Origin: Cyanophora paradoxa CCMP329
Taxonomy: Eukaryota > Plantae > Glaucophyta
Reading direction: 5' to 3'
DNA: 64,000 bases
NCBI GenBank assembly: GCA_004431415.1
Contig: QPMI01000484.1
Coordinates: 186,001 to 250,000 of the forward strand
Below are positions 1 to 20,101 of the stretch, one piece after another. Each line of letters begins with the position of its first letter. The first letter of the stretch is position 1. The position numbers were made by a program, and so were the translations under genes. The notes beneath the pieces were generated by a model. The model was not told where the DNA came from, made no database searches, and was given only the letters and a program-made list of their open reading frames with translations.

Positions 1-3000
1 GCTCCAGCGGGAACCTTAAATTATAAATTAAACATATAAAATAAATAGTAAATGGAAGGATCAGAACAGATAGGAGGCTTAGGTGATTTAATATTAAAAT
101 TACCCGAGGGCGTGGTCCCAGACGAGCTGAGCCAGCGTCCCCACCGCCCGCGAGAGCCCGAAGAGGACCGTGAAGTAGTTCTGCGGAAACGGATCCGATT
201 AAATCAGTTAGGGCCTTGATCGCTTTTTAGTTAGAATAAATTAGAGCGAATAAGGAGCCTTGATGAGAAGTTAAATCAGATAGAGACTTGATTGCTTTGA
301 TTAGGACAGATTATCGATCGAGCCTTAAGCTTGATTGTATTGCCAGGCTAGATAGCTGGCAAGGTGGTGTATTAGGGGTACAGGTGGACTGACTATATGG
401 GTACAGGGCTACAGGGACTTGGGAAGGTATATGCCTACTGCAACAATTGCAAAGAAATCCAATGAAATCAGATAGCTATAGGGCCTTGATTGATTCTAAG
501 TTAGATTCAAATAGAGCGGATAAGGACCTGCTGGGTGAGGCCGTAGTGGACGAGGTTGACGCCGCCTGCGGAGGAACATCGATGTGAATTGGAAAAGCCG
601 AAGGAAGACACTTCGAAGACTCGAAGATCACTTCTAAGATTCAGCGAGCCAGTGGGTACGGTTCTGTTTAGCCTAGTAGGAGGATTCGAAGCTCGGACCC
701 GGGCCGGGGCGAAGCGCACTGTGGGCGTCGACGTTGGGCCAGGGATTCTTAGACAGTAAATCTTAAATTTAAATTAAGCGGACCGTCGGACCCCTAGGGA
801 CAGCTAGCCCCTGACCCCGAGGGATATATTTCGAGGGCGAAGCCCGAGCCCGAGCCCGAGGGACAGATAGCCCTAAAAAGTAAATAGAAGAAAATAGAGG
901 GATCAGATCAGATAGGAGGCTTAGGTGATTCAATCTTAAATTTAAATAAGCGGACCCCGATCATGATCATGAGGGACAGCTAGCTAGCCCTGGCCATATG
1001 CATGGGCTAGCCCCGAAGGCGGGGCGGGGCGGGGCGGGACGCACTGTGGGCGTCGACGTTGGGCCAGGGGTTCTTGACCTTGCCCTGCTCCATCAGCACC
1101 CGCGGCACCACCTACGCCCGCGGAGCGTGGGTCAAGAATCGAAGTAGGGCGGGGCCGGTTCGAGCACGCGCAGAGTGCGGTTAGGGGCCGGAAGTAGAGT
1201 ATACATAGGGCCGGATAGAGCACGCGCAGCACTAGCTGCAGCCTGGCAGTAACGTACCTCGTACATGGCGGAGCAGAGCTTGAAGAGGGGGTCGTGGGGG
1301 AGGTGCCTCAGGGCGAACTCCCGCAGGCACTTGTACCGCGGGTCCGTCCTGCTGACGAGATGATGTGTGAGATTTGATCAAGCTCTTTAATCATGATCAT
1401 GACATTCTGTAAGCGTTTTCAAGATTTGATCTCGAGCATCGGCTTTAATTTCCTCCATCTTAGAGGGGCGGGCGCGCCTGCGGAGGACGGCGTGGCCGTA
1501 GCCCGGGATGACGCGCCCCGCCCGCAGCTGCTCCCAGCACAGCGCCTCCAGCCGTTCCGCCGTCGGCTCCTGCAGAGATGAGTCAGAATTTAAGCTCGAG
1601 CTCCATTAAACTTTTAAAATTTAGCTTGTCGGATCAAAATAATATGTATGTGTGATCGAATCTCGCACCTGGCCGGCGAGCTGCTTTTGGACGGCGTGGA
1701 GGTGCGCGAGGACCTCCTGGTTCGCCAGCCCGTGCAGCGGGCCCGCCAGGCCGCTGCGCGCGGGGCGGGCGCGGGAGGGGCGGGCGTCAGAGCGAGACGG
1801 TGGAGGGGGGAGGGAGGGCGGGGCCGGTCGCTCTGGGATCTAGATCTAGGCTCTGGGGAGACGGGCGGGCGGGGCGGGATCCGGAGGGCGGCGCCAGCCG
1901 CTCTGAAATTGAGAGGGGCGCGCGGAGGCCTAGAATCTCCGATCTATATTTAGGCTCTGAGGAGCGGGCCGGGGGGGGCGGGGAGGGAAGCGGTAGGGCG
2001 GGGCGGGGGCGGAGGGAGGCGTCGGCCGGTGAGAGGGGCTCGCGAGATCTAGAATCTCTCGATCGAAATCCAGGCTCTAGATCCATGGCCAGGGCGGGCG
2101 CCGGGGCGGGCGGAAAATCCCCGATCTAGATCTAGATCTAGATCTAGGTCTAGGCTCTGCGGAGACGTGTGCGGGCACGGCGGGGTCGGGCGGGGCGGGG
2201 GCGGGGGCGGCGGCGGGCTCCGATCTAGATACAGGCTCCGAGGAGATATACAATTGCAAGCAGGGCGGCCGCGGGACGGGAGGGAGGGGGCGGGACAAGG
2301 AGAGGGGCATTTAGGCTTCGGGGGGCGCGCGGGGGCGGGGCGGGGCGGGGGCAGCGCGCTTCATGCCGGCGGCGACGGAGAGGAAGGGGTCCGAGAGCGC
2401 CGACCCCACCCTGCGATCCAAGGGCGTCAGAGATATCAATATATATGATATATGAAGCTTAATACGGCGGGGAAGCTTAAGTTTTATAGATTCAGGCTTG
2501 GTCTCAAGGTTTAAGTTTTATAGAGATTAAGCTTAGTTTAAGTTAAGTTTTATAGAGATTCTTGAGGAAAGCTCAAGGCGGCTGCCGCTGGGGCGCGCGG
2601 GGCCGGGGCCGGGCCGGGGGGGCCGGGGGCCTCACAGGTGGACGGTGTGGGCGGAGACGTTTCCCCCCTCGTGGTCCGCGTGGATCGTCTGCCGGCCGGC
2701 CCGTGAGGAGAGGGGGGAGGGGGGGGAGGGGAGGGGGGGGGGATGGAGGGCGAGGCGCGGGAGGGGGAGGGGCCGGGGGAGGGGGCCGGGGGCGCCGGGG
2801 TACGCACGAGGTATAGGCGCATGAGGTCGCGGAACTCGGCGGACTCGAACCCGAGCATGTGCGCGAAGTTGGCCGCCCAGTCCAGCTTCGGGTCGAGGGG
2901 TACGAGGCTCCCGCCGTGGTACTGGTTCCTGAAGATGTGCGCCGCGACCTGTGCCGGTTCCGTTTACTTTGGGAGGGGTACTCGGTGCGAGGGGGGTACG

Positions 3001-4523
3001 CGAACGCGCCTGGGGCATCTGGGCGAGTATGGTCATGGCGTCCTCGTACGTCGCATCCCAGTACTCCCCCTTCTTCATCCCCTCCTGCGACCCGCAAGTT
3101 AGGGGGGTACAGCGTCAAAGGGATCGGAGCTAATTATAGCGGCGCACGGAGTAGCGGCGGGCGAAGGCGGAGTGCGGCTGGAGAGCCAGCAGCCCCATCG
3201 AGAGCTGCGTCATGGGGTGCATCGTTTTCGGCAGCCCCGCCAGCAGCTCCGGTACCCCCTCCGGCAGCCTCGACCGCGCGTGCCACTCCGCGGCCACCTG
3301 ATCATGAAGCCTACAGTAAGCGAGCCGCTGTGCACGTGTACATGTCCGGGGGGTACGCGATATCGATTACCTCGGCGGCCTGATCGGGGGTGGGGACCTC
3401 GCCGGTGAGGAGGAGCCACCAGAGGGCCTCGGGGAGCGGCTCGGATCCGCCCGGGGCCTTCGGCAGCGCCGCCTGGACCTCGGGGATCGTCTTCCCCCGG
3501 AAACGGATGCCCTGCGCGCGTACAGGCGCGGAATTTGGATTTCAATTATTTTTCGAAGCTAAGGGTTAGATTAAAGCTTCGGGCGGGCAGAGCGAGGCTT
3601 TAATTTCCTTTGCGCCCTAGATCTAGAGCGCGCCTGCAGCTGGACCCCAGGCTGAGAGCGTCCTGTAATTTGCGCTCTATAGCCAAAAGCTAGCTTTATA
3701 TAATATATATACAGCCTCGAGCTGAGGTCGAGCCCAGGCGCCAGCTTAGAATTAAGCTCGGGGGCACCTCCTCGGGGTCGAGGAGCGACGTCTCCCACAC
3801 CATCGTCTGCGCTCGAGATCGAGATCGGGGGCGCACGCCGATCGCGAGCAGGGCGAATCAAATCAGATTTGGGATCTGGATCCGGATCGCGCGCACCTTG
3901 ATGCTGCGCGAGCCGCCGTAGATCTGAGGCCCCCCCGATCAGATCTGATCTGAGCCGCCGGAATCTAAATCCCCACACGTCTAGCGCAGTTCTTGCTGAA
4001 GTGATCATGATCATGATCATGACCGCGCATGCTCGGACGTCGACGGGAATCACCTGCTCGATGGTGACCGTGTCGATCTTCTCCGCGCCGTACCGCTTCT
4101 GAATTTCTTTCACCTCCGCGACCTGCACGCGTACGTTCGTACGCGTGCGCGGCCGCCGTTCAGATCAGAAAATCGGATGATCCGATCGGCGAACGAGGGC
4201 GTGGGCCGGGACCTTTGCAGGGATGATCTGCTGAAGGCGGGTTTTGAGGGCCGACGTCGGCGGGCGCGCCGCGCCGCTCGAAGAGAGGCCCCTCGAACTC
4301 CTCGAGATCGAGCGCCGGGCGACGCTGAACGCCGCCATGGACGCGAGCCGCTGCAGCGTACGTATTATACGGAATCAGTACGTGCGATCGATCTGAGAAC
4401 AGGCGCGGATCTTGAGGGGACCGACGGCGCGCGCGCGAACGCGAACAAGGGCACCTGCACATGCGTGTTTGCTGCTCCGACGCCAGAGAGGAGCTGCCGC
4501 GCGACGGTGAGCGACGTCGACAT
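1..4523 (-). CDS. CS: Mitochondrial-type citrate synthase, multi-exon, 3' end runs off the window start
   Basis: Spliced exons give [147 protein letters not shown] and [13 protein letters not shown]. The Arg/Ser-rich presequence starts at ATG 4523 or at in-frame ATG 4338. Confidence 0.96.
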
Positions 4524-5174
4524 CCTCGGCGCCGAGAGTGAGTGCGCCGATCGGCGCCGAGCTTGGCCGCGCGCCCCTGACGAATTCGAATGGGCGGAAG
4601 ACGACGAGACGCGCCGCCCCTTCTCGTTTTTGGGGAGGGGGGAGGGGGGGGGGAGGGGGGAGGGGGGATGTGGGAGGGGAGGAGTGGGACTTGGCCGCGT
4701 GCGAGAGCCTCGGAGACACAATCGATCCGCAGCATGCACTCAGAATTCGAATAACACCACTTCTACACCATAAGACAGATAGGGACACGTAGATACATAA
4801 GCTACAGTAATTACATAAGAGCCATAATACAATTGGCTCGACACACCCAGCCCGGCGGTCCGAATAGATACGTATACTATGATAAGAGAAGAATAGAACC
4901 AGGAATGCAATGTCATTATGGAAGGGAAGACTAGTGTACTATACCCGACGCTACGGGGAAGTGCGTTGACGTCACAAAACTGTGGGCTTGTACTTCAACT
5001 TGGCAAAGCAGGGGAATTCGAAGTGTAAGCGGAAAGGGATGGGCGGAGCTAGATTACAAATTATTGAATGAAAAACTGACTTTAATACTATGATATCAGA
5101 GTGTGGTCGAGTACGAATGAGGAAAGGAAGAAAGAGGGAGATCGATCCGAGTGATCCACACGGCAGCTCCGCGG

Positions 5175-8100
5175 CTAGACGAGCGCCACCATGGACTGGT
5201 GCACTTCCCGCCAGCGCTCTATGTTGGACCGGATGGATGCCACGAGGGGCGAGCCGACCTCGGGCACCAGCTCCGCGACCGCCTCGTAGAGGGGTAGGAT
5301 CACGCCGGAGAGGAAGAAGACCTGGAGGAAAAAACAAAATTAGAGGAGGAACAGGGGGGGGGGGGGGGGGAAAGAAGCGAGTACCTGGCGGCCCGAGGAG
5401 CCCATGTCGGGCTCGTTCGTGGGAGACATCCCGGGCGAGACCTCGAGCCCCAGCTCCTGCTCCAGGGCGCCCTGAGCAAAGAACTCCTGCTGGATCGCCG
5501 ACGACCAGTGCTGGCTGTTCTCGAAGGTGCGCGCCCCGTTCGCCAGGTCCGCGCACTTCATAAGCATCGCCGCGAAGAGCGTCTGAAGCGAACGAAAGTG
5601 AGCGGCGCGCGCTCATTTTCCGGAAGCAAAAACTGCGCACCCGATCGTCCAGATGCGCGAGGCGCGCGCCGGGGGCGCCCAGCGCGACGCTCCGGGCCGG
5701 CTCGTCGTCCAAGAACCGCGCCTTGAACGCCGCCATGTAGTCCCCGTGCAGCATCATGTCCGTCGCTGAGATGGATAGATTAGATTAGATTAGACTAGAT
5801 GATTCTCTTATAAGATTTTCGGATTTGATCACCCATGATGACGTCGACCGCGAGCTGCGAGAAGCGTTGCCGCTCCTCCGGACTTAGCCCAACGAGGATG
5901 TCGACGTCCTCTCTCTGCAGGAGCGAGAGAAAGCGGCTCGCGTGGTGCCGCTCCAGCGGGCTGCTGTTGCAGTAGAGGACCGCCATGGGCGCCTTGGACT
6001 TGATGAGGAAGAGGTTCGTGAGGCCGGGGTGGTCGAGGTCTGCTCGGATCGGATCAGATGGCTCAGATCAGATGGCTCAGATCAGATCAGGTTGGATCTG
6101 AGCGGACCGTGGCAGAGGGCGGCGACGAGGATGGCGTACATGTCGATATGGTCGAGGGGGGGTACGCGCCGGAACCCGCCGGCGCGGGGGGGCGGGGCGG
6201 CGGGGGAGAGGGCGAGTTCGTCTTGGGGGGGCTGGGGCGTGGCGGAGCGGAGGGAGAGGAGCTGCGGCGGAGGAAACCCGTCAGATTGAATGATATAATA
6301 TAAGATTCTTAGATGCGTAAGCTAGATTGGTTAGCTTTTTTATATAAGAAATCGGACCTGGAAGAAAACCATTTGGCAGACGTCCAAAGCGTGCGCGGCG
6401 TTGTGGAAGGGAGAGGAGGGGCGGTACGAGGCGAGGGCCTCCCGCACGAACGCCGAGAGCTCCGCTGCGCCGGGCCGGCAGGCCTCCAGCAGGCCCATGC
6501 GCGCCAGCATGCGCTGGACGAGGAGGGGGTACGCCGCGTGCGGGACGTGGGCGACCGAGAACTCGTGGGACTCGAGGGGCGGGCCACCCTTGAAGGATAT
6601 GGAGGCGAGGGAGCGGGAGCGGGGCGGGCGGGAGAGGGCGACGCCGCCGCCGCCGCCGCCGCCGCCCGAGGGCGAGTTTGGGAGTATGGCGCCGCCGCCG
6701 CCGCCGCCGCCGGATTCCCTTAACGAATCGACGAGGGCGGAGAGGCCGGAGGGTGCTAGGCGGCTGGTGCCGGCGGCGGCGCCACCGACGGACGGCGACA
6801 TCATCGGGACGGGCGACTGGATCGGCGCGGGCGAGACGGCCCCGCCGCCGCCGAGGTCGATGGTCGCCTCGGAGACCGTTCGCCTGGTGCCTCTGCTGCT
6901 CGCCGCCTCCTCTTCCGCCTCTGCCTTCTCCAGCGCCTCGACGGCCTGCCGCTCCTCCTCGTCCATCTCGGGAGAGACTTCGTCCGGGTCCATCAGGAAG
7001 TACCTGGGCCGGGCTAAGCGGACAGACAGATGGAAAGTGGATAGGAGACTATGGGCAGAAATGAGCCGAGAGAAGAAGAACATAGATGGAAGCTAGATAG
7101 AATGACGTGCTGATAGGTAGATAGAAGCGGATAGAAGACTAAGCTAGGAAGAATGTAGAATTTAAGATGTTTTAGACAGGGAGCGCACGTGTGCATGTGG
7201 CCCTTGCCCTTGATGAAAACCTCGCCTCGGTCCTCGAAGCGGAACTGAGACTTGGCGCCCTCGTGCTTCGCCAGCTCCTCGTAGACGGCGCGGGAGACCT
7301 GCGGGCGGGCGGGTGGACGGGATGGATCGGATCAAATTTCGATGTTTCGATGTTTCGATGCGAGAGCTTAGATTAGATCTGCTGCGTCGAGGCGTCCGTT
7401 GCGGACCTGCGTGCGGCCGGGCAGCCCGCTGCTCTCCATGCGCGACGCGATGTTCACCGTGTCGCCCCTGCGCCGAAAACGTTAACATCATTCGATCGGA
7501 TCGAATCCGAGAACATCAGATCCGCTATCCGTTCCGGCGCACCAGAGGTCGTAGAGGTACTTTTTCTTTCCGATGACGCCGGCGATAACCGTGCCGACGT
7601 GGATGCCGATTCGGATGCGGAAGGGGCGCCCGTCGAACGCGCGGTACGCGTCTATCGCCTCGTGCATCTCTAATGCCATCTTCGCCATCCTCACCTGGCG
7701 CGAGACGCGAGTTCGATTCCGCACAGCGCCGTTTCTTTTTTTGGGGGGGGGGGGAAAGGGGGGTACCAGGTGCGGCTCGTCCGAGTCGCAGGCATCGACG
7801 GGTACGCCGCCCGCGCACATGAAGGCGTCGCCCAGCGTCTTGATCTTCTCGAGCTTGTACTTTTCCGCCAACGAATCGAACTCGGAGAAGATGTCTGTAC
7901 CCCGGGACCGAGTCAGAAAGGCCGGAGGAGCGACGGGACGGGCCGGGCCGGGCCGGCGGCGTCGGATCGCACCGTTCAGAAGGGCGACGAGGTGGGCAGC
8001 GTCCATAGAGCCGGCCAAAGGCGTGAAGTTCACGATGTCCGCGAACATCACCGAGACGTTCTGCGCTCAGGCGGCTCAGACAGATAGATTGGGCGGCTCA

Positions 8101-9078
8101 GATCGCTCGAACTCGCTCGCCTCGATGCGGTCGGCGATGGCCCGCCGCAGGACGGATCCGCGGCGCGTGGCCCCGCCGCCCTGCCGTTCGATCAGATGAA
8201 CCGGATCAAATTTCAAAACTTCGGATCAAATCTTCGGGTGGGCGGACCGGCATGGCGCCCGGGAGGGGCAGCGGGGCGGCCCGGCGAACGGTCACGTTGG
8301 GCAGGGGCGCCCCCTCGAAGTTGTTCTGCTTCAGGCGCCTGCGGGGGCGAGGAGCAGCGGCGCGCGTCAGACGAAGCCGAAGGGCGCCTGGAGGAGCGGA
8401 GAAGAGCGCTTAGAAGAAGATCCTAGAGGAAGACAACAAGGATCCTAGAAGAAGACAACAAGGATCCTAGAGGAAGACAACAAGGATCCTAGAAGAAGAC
8501 AACAAGGATCCTAGAAGAAGACAACAAGGATCCTAGAAGAAGGAAGATTCAAGCATCTCTCGGAGGAAAGAGCGGGCGGGCGGGCGGGCCGGGCGCACTC
8601 TGCGATGCCGACGGGGAGCATGTTGCGCAGCAGCGCCTCCGTCCGCTGCCGCTCGTACTCCAGCGCGCCCTCCATCGCCTTGCGGCTCGTGATGTCCCGG
8701 ATCCTGCCAACGAAGGAGGCTAGGCTCAGGGGCGGAGGGGCGAAGACCGGGGCGAGGCGGGGCGGGGCCGGGCGGGGCGGGGCGAGGCGGGGGCGGGGGT
8801 GCGGGCGGGGCCCGGCGGGGCGGTATTCTCTAGCTTGGCTGTGATAGCCAGATCGAATACGGCTTAGTTTAACTAGGCTGCGATCTTAAGAAGCTTAGCT
8901 GTGATCTTAAAAAGCTTCCGACGAGTCCGGTGCCGTTTAAGGATCGACGAAAGCTCATTAGAAGCAGATAGATAGATAGATAGATAGATATTGGTGGATT
9001 AAATCTCTTAGAAGCTCCTTAAGAAGAAGCTCGGAAACGACTCCTAGAAGGGCGCACATTCCGACGAAGAAGACCTCG

Positions 9079-9110
<32 letters not shown>

Positions 9111-10349
9111 AGACTCCTAAGTTAAAAGGGCGCACATGCCGACGAAGAAGACCTCGCCGTTGATGCGCATCTCGGAGATGGAGAGCTCGACGGGGAACTC
9201 CTCCCCGCTCTTGCGGCGCCCCACCTCCTCCCGCAGCGTCCCCAGCAGCCGCGCCTGCGCGAGGAGAGCGGGTCGTGAGGCGCGGGCGGTCTTAGCTCAC
9301 GCACGGCCTAGACCCCCCATCTCTTAGCGAGAGCGCGGGCGCTCTTGGCTCCGCTCTCGTCTGCTCCGGTCCCTCGCTGGACCCCCCTCCCCCCGCCCCG
9401 CCACCGCTTCGTTCGCACCTGGCCGGTGTGGAGGTAGCGCCGGACGATGGAGTCGTGCTGCGACGCGATCGCGGGCGGCATGATCGCCTGCGCGGCCGGG
9501 CGCAGCGGCGTCAGCGCGACCGAAGGCAAAGGCGAAGCTAAATAGATAGATAGAAGCTTTCATGGATCGACTTGGAAAGCTTAGAAGCTTAGAAGAAGCT
9601 TAAGGCGGCGTCAGCTAAGCTGAGAAGACGGAGGCGAAGGAGAAGGAGAAGCACGGCGGGACGAGGCTAAAGAGCTGGCCGGCTAGATCACGCTATCAGC
9701 GGAACTCATAGACTAGCTAGCATTAGCTAGCGGCGCGAGCGCGCGCGGCAGCGTCGGCGAAGCGCGAGGGCGAGAGGCGGGACGAGGCGGAGGGAACCCC
9801 CGCTCCCTAGCTAGCTAGCTAGCTGGCTAGCTGGCTAGCTGGCTAGCTGGCTAGGCCCCTCGCTAGAATCTAGACCCGGCCCCGGGCGAGCTAGCTCTAG
9901 CTAGCTAGGATCGAATCGAATCGGAGGGGCGGGGGCGGGGCCTAGCTAACAGGCCAGCAAGTCTAGCGAGCCAACTAGCTTTGGCTCGCTTGGATCGAAT
10001 CGAATCGGATCGGATCGGAGGGGCGGGGGCGGGGGCGGGGCGGACGGAGATGTTCTCACCGAGGAGGTCCTCTAGGATGCTGGAATCTAGACCCGGCCCT
10101 GAATCTAGAATCTATCTATCTAGACCCCGCCAGACCCCACCAGACCCCACAGGACGGGCGCACGGAGATGTTCTCGCCGAGGAGGTCCTCGGGGGAGTAC
10201 CCGAACATCGTCTCCGCCATCTTGTTCATCGACCGCACCACGCACTGCCGGGGGGGGAGGGGGGGGGGGGGGGGTTCAGAGGAGCCGGGCGGCGGGGCGC
10301 GCTGGAATGGGCGCCCGGGAGCGGCGCCCGATAGTTCTAGCATCCTGTC

Positions 10350-10422
<73 letters not shown>

Positions 10423-13230
10423 CTCCCTCTTCCGCCCATTCCGCTCGCCCCGCGCGGGTCGCCCCGGGCCCACCCGGGCCCACCCCGCCAGCCCCGCGCC
10501 CCCCTCCCTGCCCACCCCGCGGGGAGCCTCAGCGGACCTGGGCGTTGATGAGGAAGATGCCGTCGGCGGCCGCGTCCATGATCCGCCGCGTCCGGTACGC
10601 CTCCGTCGCCACCTCCTGCTGCGCGAACTCCTGCGCCGAAAGAAGAAATCCAAGGGGGATCAGATTAGATTAGATCAGATCAGAGAGAGCAGACAAGATA
10701 AGGGTGGACGGAGCAGGATGGTGGGATAAGTGACTTGGAGGAGGGCGAATAGAGGAGCAGGATGGAGGGATGGGGCTACGAGGGCGATCGATGGGGCTAT
10801 TCAAGTGGATTGGGGCGCTCAAAATGGCTTTATGTAAGATCAAATAATCGGATCGGCCTAGATTGGATCCCAGCGGAGCGGCTCGCCTGCTCCTGGTAGA
10901 CGTGCTTGACGCGCTCCGCCATGCGCCCGAAGGCCCGCGCCAGCTTCCCCACCTCGTCCCGGCCCTGAAGAAGACGGGGGCAGGCGCGTTCAGGAGAGCC
11001 TCAGGGCGGGGGTCGGGCGAGGCTCGCCTGGTTGCGCAGCTTCCCGAGGTCCTCGACGGCGCCGGAGCGGAGGAAGCCCTCGATCGACTTCTGGAGCTCG
11101 CGGATCGGCGCCGCGATGTGCCGCGCCAGCAGCGCGGCGAGTAGGAGGGCGACGACGAGCGTTCCCCCGGCCGCCAGGAGCGTCGTCACGAGGGCGTCCC
11201 GCAGGAGAACGTTCGCCTGGGACTCGGGCTTGCCGCGGACGAACAGTCCCACCTTCGCGCCGCCCGGGCCGACGATGGGCTCGGTGGACCAGGTCATTAC
11301 GGTACCCCGCAGGTCGAAGCGGGCCCGCCGGTGGTGCGCGTCCTGCTGCGCGGCGCGGAGGAGATCCATGCCGGCGGGCGCCTCCCCGATCGAGACGCCC
11401 ACGAGGGGCGGACCTGCGCGCGCGCGCGGGCCGTCCGTCGGTCGGCCGAAGGACGAAGCGAGAACTCGGAACGGCCGCGGCGAGGCGAGGCGGGGCGAAC
11501 CTTCGCCTACGCGGAGGGAGGACCCCGAGAGGGTAAAGCTGCCGTCCAGGCCCGCGACGTACAGGCCCGTGTACCCCTCCTTCAGGTACGAGATGAACTC
11601 CGTGATGGATTCCTCGGCCCCTAGGGCCGCCTTCGCCGCCACGAGGGCGGCGGCGGCCACTGCTCCGCCGCCGGGAAGGAAGACGGGTACGGCGACGAGC
11701 TGGAGGAGTACCCGGGACTGCTGGGCGGCGCCGGAGGCGAGGCCCCCGCCGCCCTCCCGCAGGGCATCCTCAGATGACACGGTCGCGCTCGCCGACACAA
11801 CCTTTCCCGAATCCATCGCGCGGCTCGCGACGGATCCGGGGTCGAATCCGGCCTCGCCCGTCCGGTCCGAGTTGCATCCCGCCGCGATCCGGAGCCCCTC
11901 CCGTAGCACGAGCTGCGCGTACGTGTGCTTCAGCTGAGAACGGGGGGCGAGGTCTGGAGGGGTACACGCGCACCGTGCCGTAGGCGAGGTGGAGGCGTGC
12001 GCATTCTTCCCGAAGGAACGCGGCGGCGGCGGCGCGCGCCGAGGCGGCCGCGGGCGACTCGGACAGTCCCGCGGAGACGGCCGACAGGACCGCTTCCCGA
12101 GTGGCCTGCCCGCCCATCGACGCGGCCGCCGGCTCTCTGCGCTCGGGCCAGTGAGTGGGCGGGTGGGCGGAAATGAGATATGGGGAGGGGTAGAGGCGCA
12201 CAGCTCCTTGTCGAAAATTAACCTCTGCTCGCGGGGCGGGGCGGGGCGGGCGGGTCAGACGGAAAGAGGCGCGGGTAGAGGGGGGGAGGGAGGAAGACGG
12301 GTACCATCACGTTCGCCCTGCGCGGCGGGGTGCCGCGTTCAGACCGGCGCGGGCGGGAAGGGGCAGGGGGCCCGAGGGGGAATGCGGCACGCACTCGCTG
12401 TCGGCGTCGATTTCGAGCTCCCGCCTGTTGTTCGTTACGAGGAGCCCGATGTGGATGCCGATGAGCGTGCCCGCCATGAGAAGCATCAGCAGCGCCGCCG
12501 CAAAGAGTTGCTTCGTGCGGATCTGTCCCCGCGCGCGCCCGTCAGACACATCTGAGCTCAGCTGCACAGCGCGGGCGGGGGCCGGTCCGCGCACGTTTAC
12601 GTTCTTCCACCAGCCCCAGCACCAGTGGAGTCGCCGCGCGAGACGGCGGCGGCGCGAGCTCTTCTCAGACGCCCGCGCCGACTCCAGCGACGCGCTGCTT
12701 GCCGGCCGCGATGTCTGGGGGCCGGCGCCGCCGCCGCCGTCGCCGCCGCCGCCGCCGCCGAAAGAGTTGGCGTGGCCGCCGGGGAGGCTGTCCCACGACA
12801 AAGGGTGCTGCTGGAAATGAAGCCCTGGCAGCCTGTTCAGCGGCATCATGGCGACCGAGGCCCTGGGTCCCTCCAGCTTGTCCGGCGATATCCTGTTGTT
12901 TCGGAAGCTCTCTGGCCGCGCCGACGCTGGTGCTGCGACGGGCCGCGCGTGCGCGCTGGTCCCGTCGCTGTGCTGCTCATGGTCGCTGGCCCCGGCGCTG
13001 TTCGAGGCCTGCTCCTCCGGCGCTCGGTGCAGGTCTATGATGCGCAGCGAAGGCGGCTCCATGATGCCACCGATGCCGCCCGGCGTGAGCCCCGCCAGTG
13101 AAGTGGTCGGCGGGTCCCGGTCCGGCGGGGGGACTGCGGCTGGCGGCTCGCCAGTCGCCGGGAACACCCGCGTGTCCGGGCGCAGCGGCCCCAGAAACTG
13201 GACAGCGGCCCCGGCCCCGCTGCTCCCCAT
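5175..13230 (-). CDS. Multi-exon membrane receptor: TM-Cache-like-TM-HAMP-PAS(FixL-like)-class III adenylyl cyclase-class I phosphodiesterase
   Basis: TM1 LFAAALLMLLMAGTLIGIHIGLL. Cache-like EPIVGPGGAKVGLFVRG. TM2/HAMP LLARHIAAPIRELQ...RDEVGKLARAFGRM. PAS DAAADGIFLINA...NKMAETMFGYSPEDLLGENIS..MPPAIASQHD...IRDIT. Cyclase MFADIVNFT, EKIKTLGDAFM, YLYDLWGDTVNIASRMES. PDE FHNAAHALDV, ALCHDLDHPGLTN, LERHH, TDM, KCADLAN, EFFAQG. Stop TAG at 5175-5177. Confidence 0.92.
8419..8541. repeat. Intronic 22-bp tandem repeat (gatcctagaRgaagacaacaag, 5 copies plus a partial)
   Basis: Units read directly at 8419, 8441, 8463, 8485, 8507, with a partial at 8529. Confidence 0.95.
10353..10419. repeat. Intronic poly-C/poly-G homopolymer (~67 nt)
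   Basis: Uninterrupted C run inside an intron of the PAS-encoding region. Confidence 0.9.
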
Positions 13231-14289
13231 CTCGCTCGCCCCCCTACGCGTGCGCAGGCTGCGGCTCGTGGTTCATCGGCGGCGCGCGGCCGACCGCGGT
13301 CCGAGATGATGATACGGCACGATCGGCCAAACGAATGCCAAAGACGCTTCGAATGCGCCGGGCCTCGCCCACCGCGCCGAATGTGCCGCCCGCGCCCACC
13401 CGGCCCGGAGCAATAATGCTAGCGGGGCTGAATCGCGGAGGCTGAACGGAAGCTTTAAGTAAGCAGCACTGCCGTTACTAAGCTTCAAGCAGGGCCGATG
13501 AGCTGCCGAGGCGCTGCGCGCACCGTGGCACACTGCGGGCCTCTAGATCTGCAGCTGCGGGAAATCGAGCTCTGCGGGGCCTGGAAGTGGAGAACGGAGG
13601 CCTAGCCGGGTACAATAGACGAAGGAGCTTACCAGTATATCGACGTCAACGGACTCGGACGCAACGGCAGCAACGTCGACGTCGACGGAGCCCCGCGCTG
13701 CCCCGGAAGGGCCGGAACCTCCTAAAAAACTCTTTTATAAAAAATCATTTACGAAATTAACGGCCGGAATTAACGGCTTATATATAAATATGGCTTGGAT
13801 TTCGAAGTTCGTTATATATTAGCATCATATTCGTTGGCCGTTATATTTAGAGAACACGTGCACGTGCAGTTAATTTGAGCCTTCTCATTGCTCGGCGATC
13901 GCTTTGTGTTCGGCGCCATACCCAGCGAGTCCGACCTCTAACAAAGAGCTGCTGGGCCGGCGATCGCTTCTGGGTTCTCAGTTCTAACGGTCGCCGCGGG
14001 CTTGACGTCCACCGCCTTCTCATTGGCCAAGCGATCGCTGCTTTTCGGTGTCTTATGCCCGACTCCGCAGCATGTCGACCCCAGGAGCACTCTCTTTGGG
14101 GAGGAAGAGATGGAGTGGACCTCCAGCTCATCTCCCAATCCCCTTCTGGCGGGCCGCACGGCGGGTGGTGGCCTCGGGGGCGGCCTCGGGGCAGCACGGC
14201 AAGCGGCGGCGCTCGCTCCAGCCTTGAGCTTGTCCCCACGCTGACCGGCGCGGCGGGGGCCGGTGCGACGCGGGGGAGAGGGGTACTGC

Positions 14290-17944: not shown

Positions 17945-18918
17945 TTCCGCTTGCAGATAGTGTAGGGTTCTACGACAGCGTTGGTTTTGTAAGAGATCAA
18001 TTTCAGGAGGGTGATCCCTGTACCCTTCGATCGCAAGTTAGCCACCGGTGGCTAACTTCGGGGGGAATGAAGGGGGGGGAGAAGCGCAGGGGGGACGAAT
18101 AGCAAAAAAAACCAACTTCCGCGCGCCCGGCCGGCGCCATGCATGCAGCTGCAGCGCGCGAACGTCAACACCGCCCGATGCGCATGTGCACTGCCGTGCG
18201 CGCGCCGTGCTCAGCCCCGCGGCGCCACGCCCGCCCGGCAGGCGACGTCGCCGCGCCCGCGCACGCGAGGAGTACACATCGCTGGCTTCATCGGCTCACC
18301 CGCGGCGCCGGCGGCGCGCTAGCTACGCGCTTTCGCTTGTCCGAGGTGCACATCATCGAATTCTGCAGCCTTCGCCCCATCCTCGGCCGCTGTAAGGCGG
18401 CGCGCAGGGATTCGAGCTCTCAACCGGGTCTCATGGCGTCGGCCGGCGGGCCCAGCGCAAGCAGCTCTGAGTCAGTAGGTACGTGCCGGAACCGCCCCTC
18501 GGTCCTGCTTGGGCGCGCTTTCTTCCGATCCTTCTAAAAACCGTGATTTCGGGGCGACATTTTGGCACTATGTTCACTATGCCCGCCGGCCATGGGCTCG
18601 GATCGGGCCGGGGCCTTTTTTAAGCGATCGCCGGCGCCGCGTCCGTCGTCCGACGGTTCGCGCTAGCGATTGCCCCGGAGTACTCGGTACCAGGGCCTGG
18701 CGGTCGCCGAAGCGATGAGAAGGCTCAAAGTTTAACAGCTCTATGTACATTCACATGAATTTTTCTGAATTCGAATTCCATGCATCATGAAGTGTTCGTT
18801 CATCCTCGAACCATCGTCTACCTCTACCCCCGGGCCGGCCCCGGCCCCCGGTCTGAAACGGGTACAGCCCTCCAGGGTCTTGGCCGTCGTCGGGGCACCC
18901 GAAGGCTTGGCGCGCGCG

Positions 18919-20101
18919 ATGGCGACTGTCCCGGCAATCCGGCGTGCTGCCGCTGCCACCGGGGCCGGTCCGCCACCCGCGCCGTCGCCATCGGCCCATC
19001 CTCGCACGCCCGCGCTCACCGGTCGTTCCTGCAGGTCTTCGGACGATCCAGGCAGCGGCGCCAGTCCACAGCACAGCATCCCGGGCGCCTTCCCTCGCTC
19101 TCGGCCTTGGGCCGCTTCCGGCGCGTCCGGCGGCGCTCTTCTCGCGGGCTCTCAGCGGCCTCGCCGTGTCGATGCACGCGGCGTCCCTGTCTCCCGCCGC
19201 GGGGCCTGCAGCGGCGGCGGCGAGCGTAGCGGCGAACAGGCAGATCGGGGGCGTGCGCGGCATGTCCATCCTGGACAAGTTCCTCGGCACAAAGGAGCAG
19301 CCGACCGTGAAGCGAGTCTCTGCTGACGACGCGATGCCGAGCGGCATCCTCGCCAAGCTGGGCGACATCGCCGAGGAAGACGACGGGACTGTCTACGTCC
19401 CGAAGCCCGGCGAGCGCCTCGCGCCCTTCGCGAAGCGCAACTACGCGGCGATCGAGACGCGCGACATCAGATGCAGCCCCTACAAGCTCAACGACGTCGC
19501 GAAGATGATCCGCGGCCTGTCGGCGGACGTCGCGCTCAGGCAGCTCACGCTCTGCCCGCGGCGAGTCGGCCGCGAGGTCGTCCTGCACACGCTTCGGGAG
19601 GCGCTCAAGCTCGCCGCCGAGAGCTACAAGCTGGAGCGTTCCCGCCTCTTCGTCTGTGCGCGCCCACGGCCCCGGCCCGCCGCGCCCCGGCTTCGAGCGC
19701 TTCCGCGCCGCGCCGGCCGCCGCCGACCCCGCGGCCGCAGGGCAAGCGTTCGTGGGCAAGGGAGTGTACCTCAAGCGCATCACGTACCACAACAAGGTGC
19801 CGCCGGGTACCCCCGGTCGCCCTCCTCGCGCCAACTTCGCCGCGCAGGGCCGCCACGGGAAGCGGTTCCGCTACTTCTCGCGCCTCACCCTCGTCCTGGC
19901 GCTGCGGCCGACCGAGGAGCAGAAGGCCGCCGCCGCCGCCGCCGTGCGCCGCCGCGCCCGCCGCCGCCGCCCTCGCGGCGTCGTAACCGTTTCGATCCGC
20001 AGGAGAAGGCGAAGAAGGCGGCACCAAAGAAGAAGCGCATGCTGGTTCGGATATTCGGCGGCAAGCCCGCGCCGACCATCCGCGCCTCTCTGTCCCGGTA
20101 G
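18919..20101 (+). CDS. MRPL22: Mitochondrial ribosomal protein uL22m, multi-exon
   Basis: Presequence MATVPAIRRAAA..., then IRCSPYKLNDVAKMIRGLSADVALRQL, RLFV-GQAFVGKGVYLKRITYHNK-GRHGKRFRYFSRLTLVL, matching the L22 signature. Confidence 0.88.

Follow-up and report, generated by a model that had tools for sequence, protein, structure and literature searches.

Does a single gene of the glaucophyte Cyanophora paradoxa encode a protein that senses, makes and destroys cyclic AMP (cAMP)? The question is raised by the minus strand of a 64-kb stretch of contig QPMI01000484.1 (positions 186,001 to 250,000; hereafter the window), which consists of GC-rich, intron-rich eukaryotic DNA. The original prediction, made from the DNA letters, had placed a Cache ectodomain, a HAMP domain, a heme-binding PAS domain, a class III cyclase and a class I phosphodiesterase (PDE) in one polypeptide. 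Reading three minus-strand frames and then adjusting the exons to spliced contigs yielded a gene at 13230-5175 (-) with 26 exons and one open frame of 1,490 amino acids (ATG at 13230, stop at 5175). Pfam searches, hydropathy, a structural model and alignments gave the domain order that had been claimed, i.e. transmembrane (TM) helix, dCache, TM helix, HAMP, PAS, class III cyclase, a 136-residue low-complexity linker and class I PDE. No other cyclase or PDE piece was found elsewhere in the window.

The spliced contigs came from runs X15, X16 and X18 of two studies. The run records carry no RNA label, and the runs were judged to be RNA from their spliced joints. Contigs of these three runs skipped introns of the gene; intron 25 was retained in the DNA run X9. 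The joint 7001/7187, which connects the last cyclase exon to exon 21, was present in both X15 and X16 (two studies), and exon 21 itself encodes the cyclase end together with the linker and the first metal motif of the PDE. One 864-nt X16 contig extended from exon 19, which encodes the cyclase Asn and Arg, to exon 22, past the first PDE metal motif. In both studies, spliced contigs connect the cyclase with the PDE and the sensor with the PAS. Among the joints listed, 12 of the 25 introns were seen directly. RNA joints were also obtained at 8337/8598, which joins exons 13 and 14, at 8179/8247 and at 8060/8121, and the exon 14 donor was set to 8247 by RNA contigs. For introns 7-9 and 12, support came from a 1,736-nt contig whose exon lengths add up to the base, with exon 12 at the position predicted from exons 6-11. 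The length of this contig and the public model P0147 were consistent with introns 1-5, piece coordinates supported intron 6, and loose contig ends supported introns 10 and 18. The lack of a single full-length molecule among the contigs of X15, X16 and X18 counts against a single gene. Nevertheless, from the open frame and the spliced contigs we conclude with high confidence that the cyclase, the PDE and both sensors are one protein from one spliced gene.

The public annotation splits this gene in two, g14660 (P0147, the receptor part) and g14659 (P0001, the catalytic part). P0147 is identical to the 26-exon model over residues 1-608, and P0001 (Cyanophora paradoxa g14659) was the top match of the cyclase exons. 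The split falls at intron 9 and cuts the PAS domain in half; g14659 also lacks exon 13. The genome paper cautions that its gene models need curation (PMC6704402). A run of ~65 C residues lies at 10352-10419 in intron 9, where the annotation divides the gene.

All exons lie on the minus strand. Exons 1-7 are at 13230-12595, 12522-12395, 12317-12305, 12224-12202, 12136-11974, 11912-11501 and 11413-11028, and exons 8-14 are at 10964-10887, 10630-10538, 10244-10164, 9487-9419, 9254-9136, 8703-8599 and 8338-8248. Exons 15-20 follow at 8180-8121, 8060-7973, 7894-7767, 7694-7543, 7467-7407 and 7298-7189, and exons 21-26 at 7003-6358, 6261-6108, 6039-5833, 5765-5641, 5582-5385 and 5321-5175. Two exons are tiny, 12317-12305 with 13 nt and 12224-12202 with 23 nt. 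The 25 introns comprise 22 GT-AG and 3 GC-AG introns; the GC donors belong to introns 7, 8 and 15, and one of them was RNA-confirmed (joint 8060/8121). Intron 10 (10163-9488) and intron 12 (9135-8704) contain a near-exact copy of the upstream exon end with its donor (35 nt at 94% and 31 nt at 97%, respectively), and the 3' end of intron 12 is likewise similar to the end of exon 12 (12 letters, 2 differences). These copies look like local tandem duplications at splice junctions that left cryptic donors behind. The 3' untranslated region covers at minimum 4734-5174 (-), with spliced contigs reaching 4734-4796 in three runs. A likely 5' untranslated region, whose start is undefined, occupies 13231-13529 (-), with contig cover to 13529 in X15 and X18.

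The N-terminus (residues 1-212; 12595-13230, -) is assigned to the cytoplasm and is mostly predicted to be disordered (predicted local distance difference test, pLDDT, < 50 for residues 1-172; 51% Gly/Ser/Pro/Ala in residues 1-200), with a basic helix before the first TM helix. The two TM helices are predicted at residues ~217-241 (12436-12510, -; Kyte-Doolittle 19-residue mean up to 2.36) and ~533-556 (11121-11192, -; hydropathy up to 2.53), and both are helices in the model. The extracellular dCache domain between them (residues 243-530; 11199-12432, -) was assigned from a profile score and a predicted fold. A profile of 53 bacterial rows scored the ectodomain at 79 bits (E 7e-17), compared to 0.7 bits for the best of 200 shuffled sequences (90 reported). 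In the AlphaFold model, in which pLDDT was mostly 80-97, residues 243-524 consisted of a long N-terminal helix and two PAS-like modules between the TM helices and matched dCache domains with Z 13-17. The best structural match was the DctB sensor 3by9 (Z 16.8, root-mean-square deviation 4.4, 225 aligned), and the modelled ectodomain of the paralog P0014 was also a dCache domain (Z 16.6 to the DctB sensor). Pfam gave no Cache match on the in-frame stretch 11028-11912 or on the P0014 ectodomain. Thus, the proposed Cache ectodomain holds as a predicted fold but not as a Pfam match, and the model indicates that this fold is dCache.

Of all parts of the proposed receptor, the ligand input is the most uncertain, because no other member of the ectodomain family has diverged as far as this one. 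Its branch is the longest in its tree (3.6), its median identity to the bacterial rows is 24%, and it lacks the family stretches Y-x-I-K-x-N-Q-M-G-F-G and D-x-x-N-G-K, which are largely kept in the paralogs. These features weigh against a working ligand sensor. They would suit a decayed ectodomain or structural relic, in which case the protein would be a membrane-anchored cAMP sensor of O2 or redox state only, or would receive its ligand input through a heterodimer with a paralog. The existence of PAS-cyclase-PDE proteins without this ectodomain (P0007, P0018 and Gloeochaete P0291) fits such a relic, as does the finding that the PAS of this copy is the most FixL-like among the three ectodomain-bearing paralogs. 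However, the model shows the complete fold at high confidence, 25 of the 39 conserved columns remain (27 of 39 in the paralogs), the exons are open and transcribed, and the divergence may reflect a new ligand. A relic is unlikely in our judgment, and we lean slightly towards an ectodomain that still binds a ligand in the g14660/g14659 copy. The amino-acid-sensing dCache_1AA motif is YxxxxRxWY...Y...D (PMC8915833), and its RxW was absent from all three Cyanophora ectodomains.

A search with the P0014 ectodomain matched the PilJ-type chemoreceptor P0121 (E 1.6e-29). The 80 genome loci kept for P0121 carried cyanobacterial names in 75 cases, 'uncultured bacterium' in 4 and Gracilibacteria in 1, and the ectodomain family was present in 34 of the 201 cyanobacterial-phylum genomes searched. 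Its bacterial carriers were histidine kinases and chemoreceptors, the latter in clusters of patA, cheY, cheW, a methyl-accepting chemotaxis protein (MCP) gene and cheA (loci L001-L192). These PilJ-type chemoreceptors and kinases share with the Cyanophora protein a homologous TM-dCache-TM-HAMP front end and a juxtamembrane W..(N/D)..I..KQ stretch, but they have an MCP or kinase output domain where the Cyanophora protein has a cyclase. No bacterial donor with this ectodomain already joined to a cyclase was found among 133 open reading frames, two sets that were both seeded with cyanobacterial motifs and cover other phyla thinly. The 81 metagenomic frames comprised 60 MCP and 12 kinase-type proteins, no cyclase, and 9 that were cut or ended early; none of the 52 genome-derived frames was a cyclase, and the 13 without an MCP match were probably cut by locus ends. 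Eight cyanobacterial-type dCache_1 cyclases were ruled out as the source of the ectodomain, with at most 4.9 bits against the family profile.

The bacterial relatives had sub-cut-off Pfam matches to dCache_1/dCache_3 (E 4e-5), and the Atlas look-alikes of one relative, P0146, were Cache clusters; Pfam contains no dedicated model for the family. Two tandem dCache-HAMP-cyclase units with the same ectodomain family occur in Entosiphon sulcatum (P0122 / P0016). In a quick unrooted tree with long branches and biased composition, the five eukaryotic ectodomains lay on one side of a branch (SH-like approximate likelihood ratio test, SH-aLRT, 90) and were not nested in cyanobacteria. The idea that the ectodomain came from the plastid ancestor is attractive, but it is not proven, because this tree is unrooted and long-branched and includes the non-photosynthetic euglenid Entosiphon.

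The HAMP domain (residues ~556-608; 10902-11120, -) was identified by PF00672 on exon 8 alone (E 1.6e-5) and also matched the HAMP regions of bacterial receptors. The FixL-type PAS domain occupies residues 626-742 (8679-10594, -), and its second half aligned without gaps to FixL heme domains (E 1.4e-11). The pocket of Sinorhizobium meliloti FixL is formed by His194, Arg200, Ile209, Ile210, Arg214, Leu230 and Val232 (PMC10765370). These seven positions map at a constant offset of 488 to H682 (9457-9455), R688, L697, L698, R702 (9233-9231), L718 and I720, all of which are kept or conservative, so the proximal His and distal Arg of the original prediction are in place. The likeness to FixL (S. 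meliloti, B. japonicum; PDB 1d06, 1xj2) thus extends to the proximal His, both functional Args and the hydrophobic distal residues in register. The two differ in that the output of FixL is a histidine kinase, whereas here it is a cyclase and the heme pocket is a prediction. The proximal His was kept in all nine aligned glaucophyte PAS domains, and five of the nine, the one in this protein included, had an Arg in exact register with the distal Arg of FixL. This PAS domain probably binds heme.

Against an O2 sensor stands the remodelled FG loop in three of the nine glaucophyte PAS domains (P0014, P0004 and P0005); the family can therefore do without heme-O2 sensing. These three proteins keep the architecture or part of it despite the remodelled loop, as would be expected if the PAS had no heme, or a heme without regulation, and only relayed signals in a ligand-gated cyclase/PDE like the diatom guanylyl cyclase (GC)/PDEs discussed below. 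Moreover, many protist cyclases carry FixL-like PAS repeats (seven in P0150), so the motif alone is no proof of O2 control. The gapless FixL match, which retains equivalents of His194, Arg200 and Arg214 and of the four hydrophobic distal residues, argues for a heme-based sensor, and we regard a PAS that only relays as doubtful, somewhat more so than the relic ectodomain. The cyclases P0150 (a diatom cluster including Conticribra weissflogii), P0195 and P0168 carry 3-7 tandem FixL-like PAS repeats, most of them with the His-Asp and Arg motif. A literature search for FixL-like heme proteins of Chlamydomonas, which would be a precedent, found nothing.

A signalling helix (residues 743-772; 8329-8678, -; HNOBA E 0.014 on exon 13; joint 8337/8598) leads into the cyclase, and a low-complexity insert (residues 773-813; 8139-8328, -) carries an RRGS basic kinase-type site at 8165-8154. 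The class III adenylyl cyclase itself (residues 814-1004; 6988-8138, -) matched PF00211 (Guanylate_cyc) with E 2.2e-61 on P0001. All of the motifs originally listed were found, namely the metal residues D827 (FAD) and D871 (GD), the substrate residues K867 (EKIK) and D940 (YDLW), and the transition-state residues N947/R951 (NIASR), which are the six residues with established roles in class III cyclases. The domain aligned to both halves of the adenylyl cyclases AC9 and AC8. The C1-type metal Asps and the C2-type Lys, Asp, Asn and Arg all reside in one chain, which fits a homodimeric adenylyl cyclase. K867/D940 is an adenine-type pair; the fusion P0271 is GC-type, and guanylyl cyclases follow a Glu/Cys rule. 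In the cyclase tree, eight Cyanophora cyclases formed one clade (SH-aLRT 97) that was not nested among the bacterial rows. Deep branching and the placement of Gloeochaete were unresolved. The earlier description of a bacterial-style cyclase is therefore not supported as far as origin is concerned.

Basic kinase-type sites (RRx[S/T]) were enriched in the loops flanking the cyclase, with 6 observed compared to a shuffle mean of 1.1 and only 2 of 2,000 shuffles as high. Two points weigh against a role of these sites: the test was post hoc on non-independent paralogs, and 6 of the 10 proteins have no such site in these loops.

The linker between the enzymes (136 residues, 1005-1140; 6580-6987, -) is 56% Gly/Ser/Pro/Ala, and its RNA was represented by pieces 6720-7001 and 6358-6598 within one contig. 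The class I PDE (residues 1143-1484; 5196-6573, -) matched PF00233 (PDEase_I) with E 2.8e-62 on P0001, covering profile positions 1-232 of 238. As predicted, the metal motifs HNxxH, HDxxH, TD and D-L-x-N and the invariant Gln were all present, as was the Phe clamp (H1199, H1203, H1265, D1266, D1388, Q1442 and F1445). Alignment with PDE4 indicated that the catalytic His, four metal ligands, Asn, Trp, Gln and Phe are kept. The nearest solved PDEs were PDE4B/D, and the paralog P0149 aligned to PDE4A. Retention of the metal ligands is informative because two metal histidines are missing in the paralog P0007. Judging from these residues, it is quite likely that the cyclase and the PDE are both active.

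The PDE departs from PDE4 in having QGA for QGD and MSP without the M-loop (MCD) Asp, both of which are conserved but non-catalytic positions; the PDE of Gloeochaete P0291 keeps QGD and MDR. These two departures near the M-loop tell against a full cAMP PDE and would fit one that is weak, inactive or cGMP-preferring, leaving a cAMP source with cross-talk or a nucleotide-binding tail. Degenerate PDEs in P0007, P0018 and P0156 persist without a full active site, and the PDE of the streptophyte protein CAPE hydrolyses both cAMP and cGMP (PMC5159850). However, the set of metal ligands is complete, the catalytic His and the Gln and Phe are in place, and the nearest solved PDEs are the cAMP-specific PDE4 enzymes, although this is weak evidence of specificity. 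A defective or cGMP-preferring PDE is improbable, about as much so as the PAS that only relays or marginally more. Two separate genes, g14660 for a receptor and g14659 for catalysis, or read-through of neighbours, would agree with the public split and the lack of a full-length transcript but are highly improbable, as the split halves a PAS domain, the 1,736-nt contig crosses it base-exactly with support in two studies, exon 21 encodes the final strand of the cyclase as well as the first PDE motif, and P0014 and P0005 are annotated whole.

Fusions were surveyed among the best 150 of 75,170 representative matches, a set crowded by double-cyclase proteins. Both enzymes occurred in 7 of these 150, always with the cyclase first (4 from Cyanophora, 1 Gloeochaete cluster with the architecture multi-TM-PAS-cyclase-PDE, and 2 others). 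Neither a protein with the PDE ahead of the cyclase nor a named diatom GC/PDE was among the best 150 of 75,170, which is not evidence of absence. Cyclase-then-PDE fusions are encoded by ~9 Cyanophora loci, three of which have the dCache front end; P0014 and P0005 have the same full architecture as the g14660/g14659 gene. The PDEs are degenerate in several members (P0007 without two metal histidines, P0018 and P0156 without the N and QGD stretches, P0014 with HD for HN), suggesting from these residues a division of labour in the family. P0002 and P0149 (g14634 and g14635) appear to be a second split cyclase-PDE model on the same contig, 25 gene numbers away, and P0151 (MMETSP) and P0271 (ENA) are further fusions of a cyclase followed by a PDE, one of adenylyl and one of guanylyl type. 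Since fusions occur in both Cyanophora and Gloeochaete, the PAS-cyclase-PDE core is likely older than the split of these two glaucophytes, with separate fusions in each as a possible alternative. To this core the dCache front end may have been added later.

CAPE, from Marchantia and other streptophytes with motile sperm, likewise combines a class III adenylyl cyclase and a class I PDE in one membrane protein, with two TM helices, both enzymes cytoplasmic, in a flagellated archaeplastid cell (PMC5159850, PMC8115329, PMC11032487). In CAPE the PDE is N-terminal and the cyclase C-terminal with the TM pair between them, whereas in the Cyanophora protein both TM helices, the dCache, the HAMP and the FixL-type PAS precede the cyclase (residues 814-1004) and then the PDE (1143-1484). 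This reversal of order, part of the original prediction, was confirmed, but the comparison with CAPE was too narrow, as receptor-type cyclase/PDE fusions also occur in diatoms and in the glaucophyte family. Membership in CAPE was rejected on domain order and TM position. Judged by domain order, the Cyanophora fusion would be independent of CAPE.

The closest topology is that of the diatom GC/PDEs, e.g. Sro991_g228730 of Seminavis robusta, with a cytoplasmic N-terminus (short in diatoms), an extracellular stretch between two TM helices and the cyclase and PDE C-terminal. They form an expanded family with 8 pheromone-induced genes (PMC4726125, PMC8027222). Unlike the Cyanophora protein, which has the adenine-type K867/D940 rather than guanine-specifying residues, they are predicted to combine a guanylyl cyclase with a cGMP PDE, and the parts of these papers available describe no dCache, HAMP or heme-PAS. 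As their name implies, the cyclase of the diatom GC/PDEs precedes the PDE. The O2-sensing adenylate cyclases of Leishmania also carry a heme sensor on a class III cyclase in a flagellated protist, but the sensor is a globin and the proteins are soluble, without PDE or ectodomain in the part of the account available (PMC7719234). Make-and-break cAMP/cGMP fusions (mosses, diatoms) and the two-TM receptor topology were thus already known. The literature searched yielded neither an adenylyl counterpart that carries dCache, HAMP and heme-PAS nor a mention of its glaucophyte family. This literature contained no account of Cyanophora cyclase-PDE proteins, although the supplements of the genome, CAPE and diatom papers, which it did not include, could list them; the main text of the Cyanophora genome paper has 0 occurrences of cyclase, phosphodiesterase, cAMP and chemotaxis (PMC6704402).

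Elsewhere in the window, an intron-rich neighbour at ~950-4340 (-) has translated pieces with motifs that appear to resemble citrate synthase, and a frame at ~18860-20100 (+) has a stretch that presumably resembles ribosomal protein uL22.

With moderate confidence, we favour a two-pass homodimeric receptor adenylyl cyclase in which a dCache ligand and a likely O2 or gas input act on the cyclase and the tethered PDE removes cAMP nearby. The homodimer would have two cyclase active sites, and by analogy with class III cyclase and HAMP biology a conformational change may be relayed along a coiled coil, as chains of the TM2-HAMP-PAS-signalling helix type do in dimeric receptors. The outside ligand and O2 or a related gas, bound by the predicted heme-PAS, would act in series through the HAMP and signalling helix. 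Because the TM2-HAMP-PAS-helix-cyclase chain is continuous, both inputs likely converge on cAMP synthesis. The weakest step of the proposal is that the PDE would not be gated by the sensors, but would be a mechanically uncoupled local sink that limits the range and lifetime of cAMP; this uncoupling is likely because the linker is long and flexible. Given the 136-residue linker and no cyclic-nucleotide-binding regulatory domain found by Pfam, the default output would be a fast-resetting local cAMP level, and the term 'pulse generator' in the original prediction was an overstatement. A true pulse would need delayed feedback, of which the basic-residue kinase sites are only a hint; kinase feedback might act at the RRxS sites of the loops that flank the cyclase. 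CAPE acts together with PKA regulatory subunits in controlling the flagellar beat (PMC11032487), and by analogy the output in the biflagellate Cyanophora cell is likely to be control of flagellar swimming. We offer only as a speculation, and one that is probably wrong, the broader idea that a cyanobacterial chemoreceptor, possibly acquired via the plastid ancestor, was rebuilt as a two-input cAMP device steering flagella; in it, the dCache-HAMP part and the FixL-type O2 sensor would drive an adenylyl cyclase, and the tethered PDE together with kinase feedback would shape the signal.

Cyclase/PDE fusions arose more than once in flagellated eukaryotes. The parts of the CAPE and diatom GC/PDE papers available do not give the controlling signal (PMC5159850, PMC8115329, PMC11032487, PMC4726125, PMC8027222), whereas the glaucophyte family carries readable inputs, a heme-PAS and a dCache domain. 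With this family, the purpose of coupling cAMP synthesis physically to its breakdown can be addressed by direct experiment. An unmodelled dCache family common to cyanobacteria, a glaucophyte and a euglenid has also come to light, and the gene structure corrects a split model. If O2 gating is true, the PAS-cyclase-PDE part would be usable as a self-resetting O2-to-cAMP tool. If the chemoreceptor was indeed rebuilt in this way, Cyanophora would have an O2-gated cyclase on a heme-PAS, and a prokaryotic chemoreceptor ectodomain would have been rewired to eukaryotic motility control.

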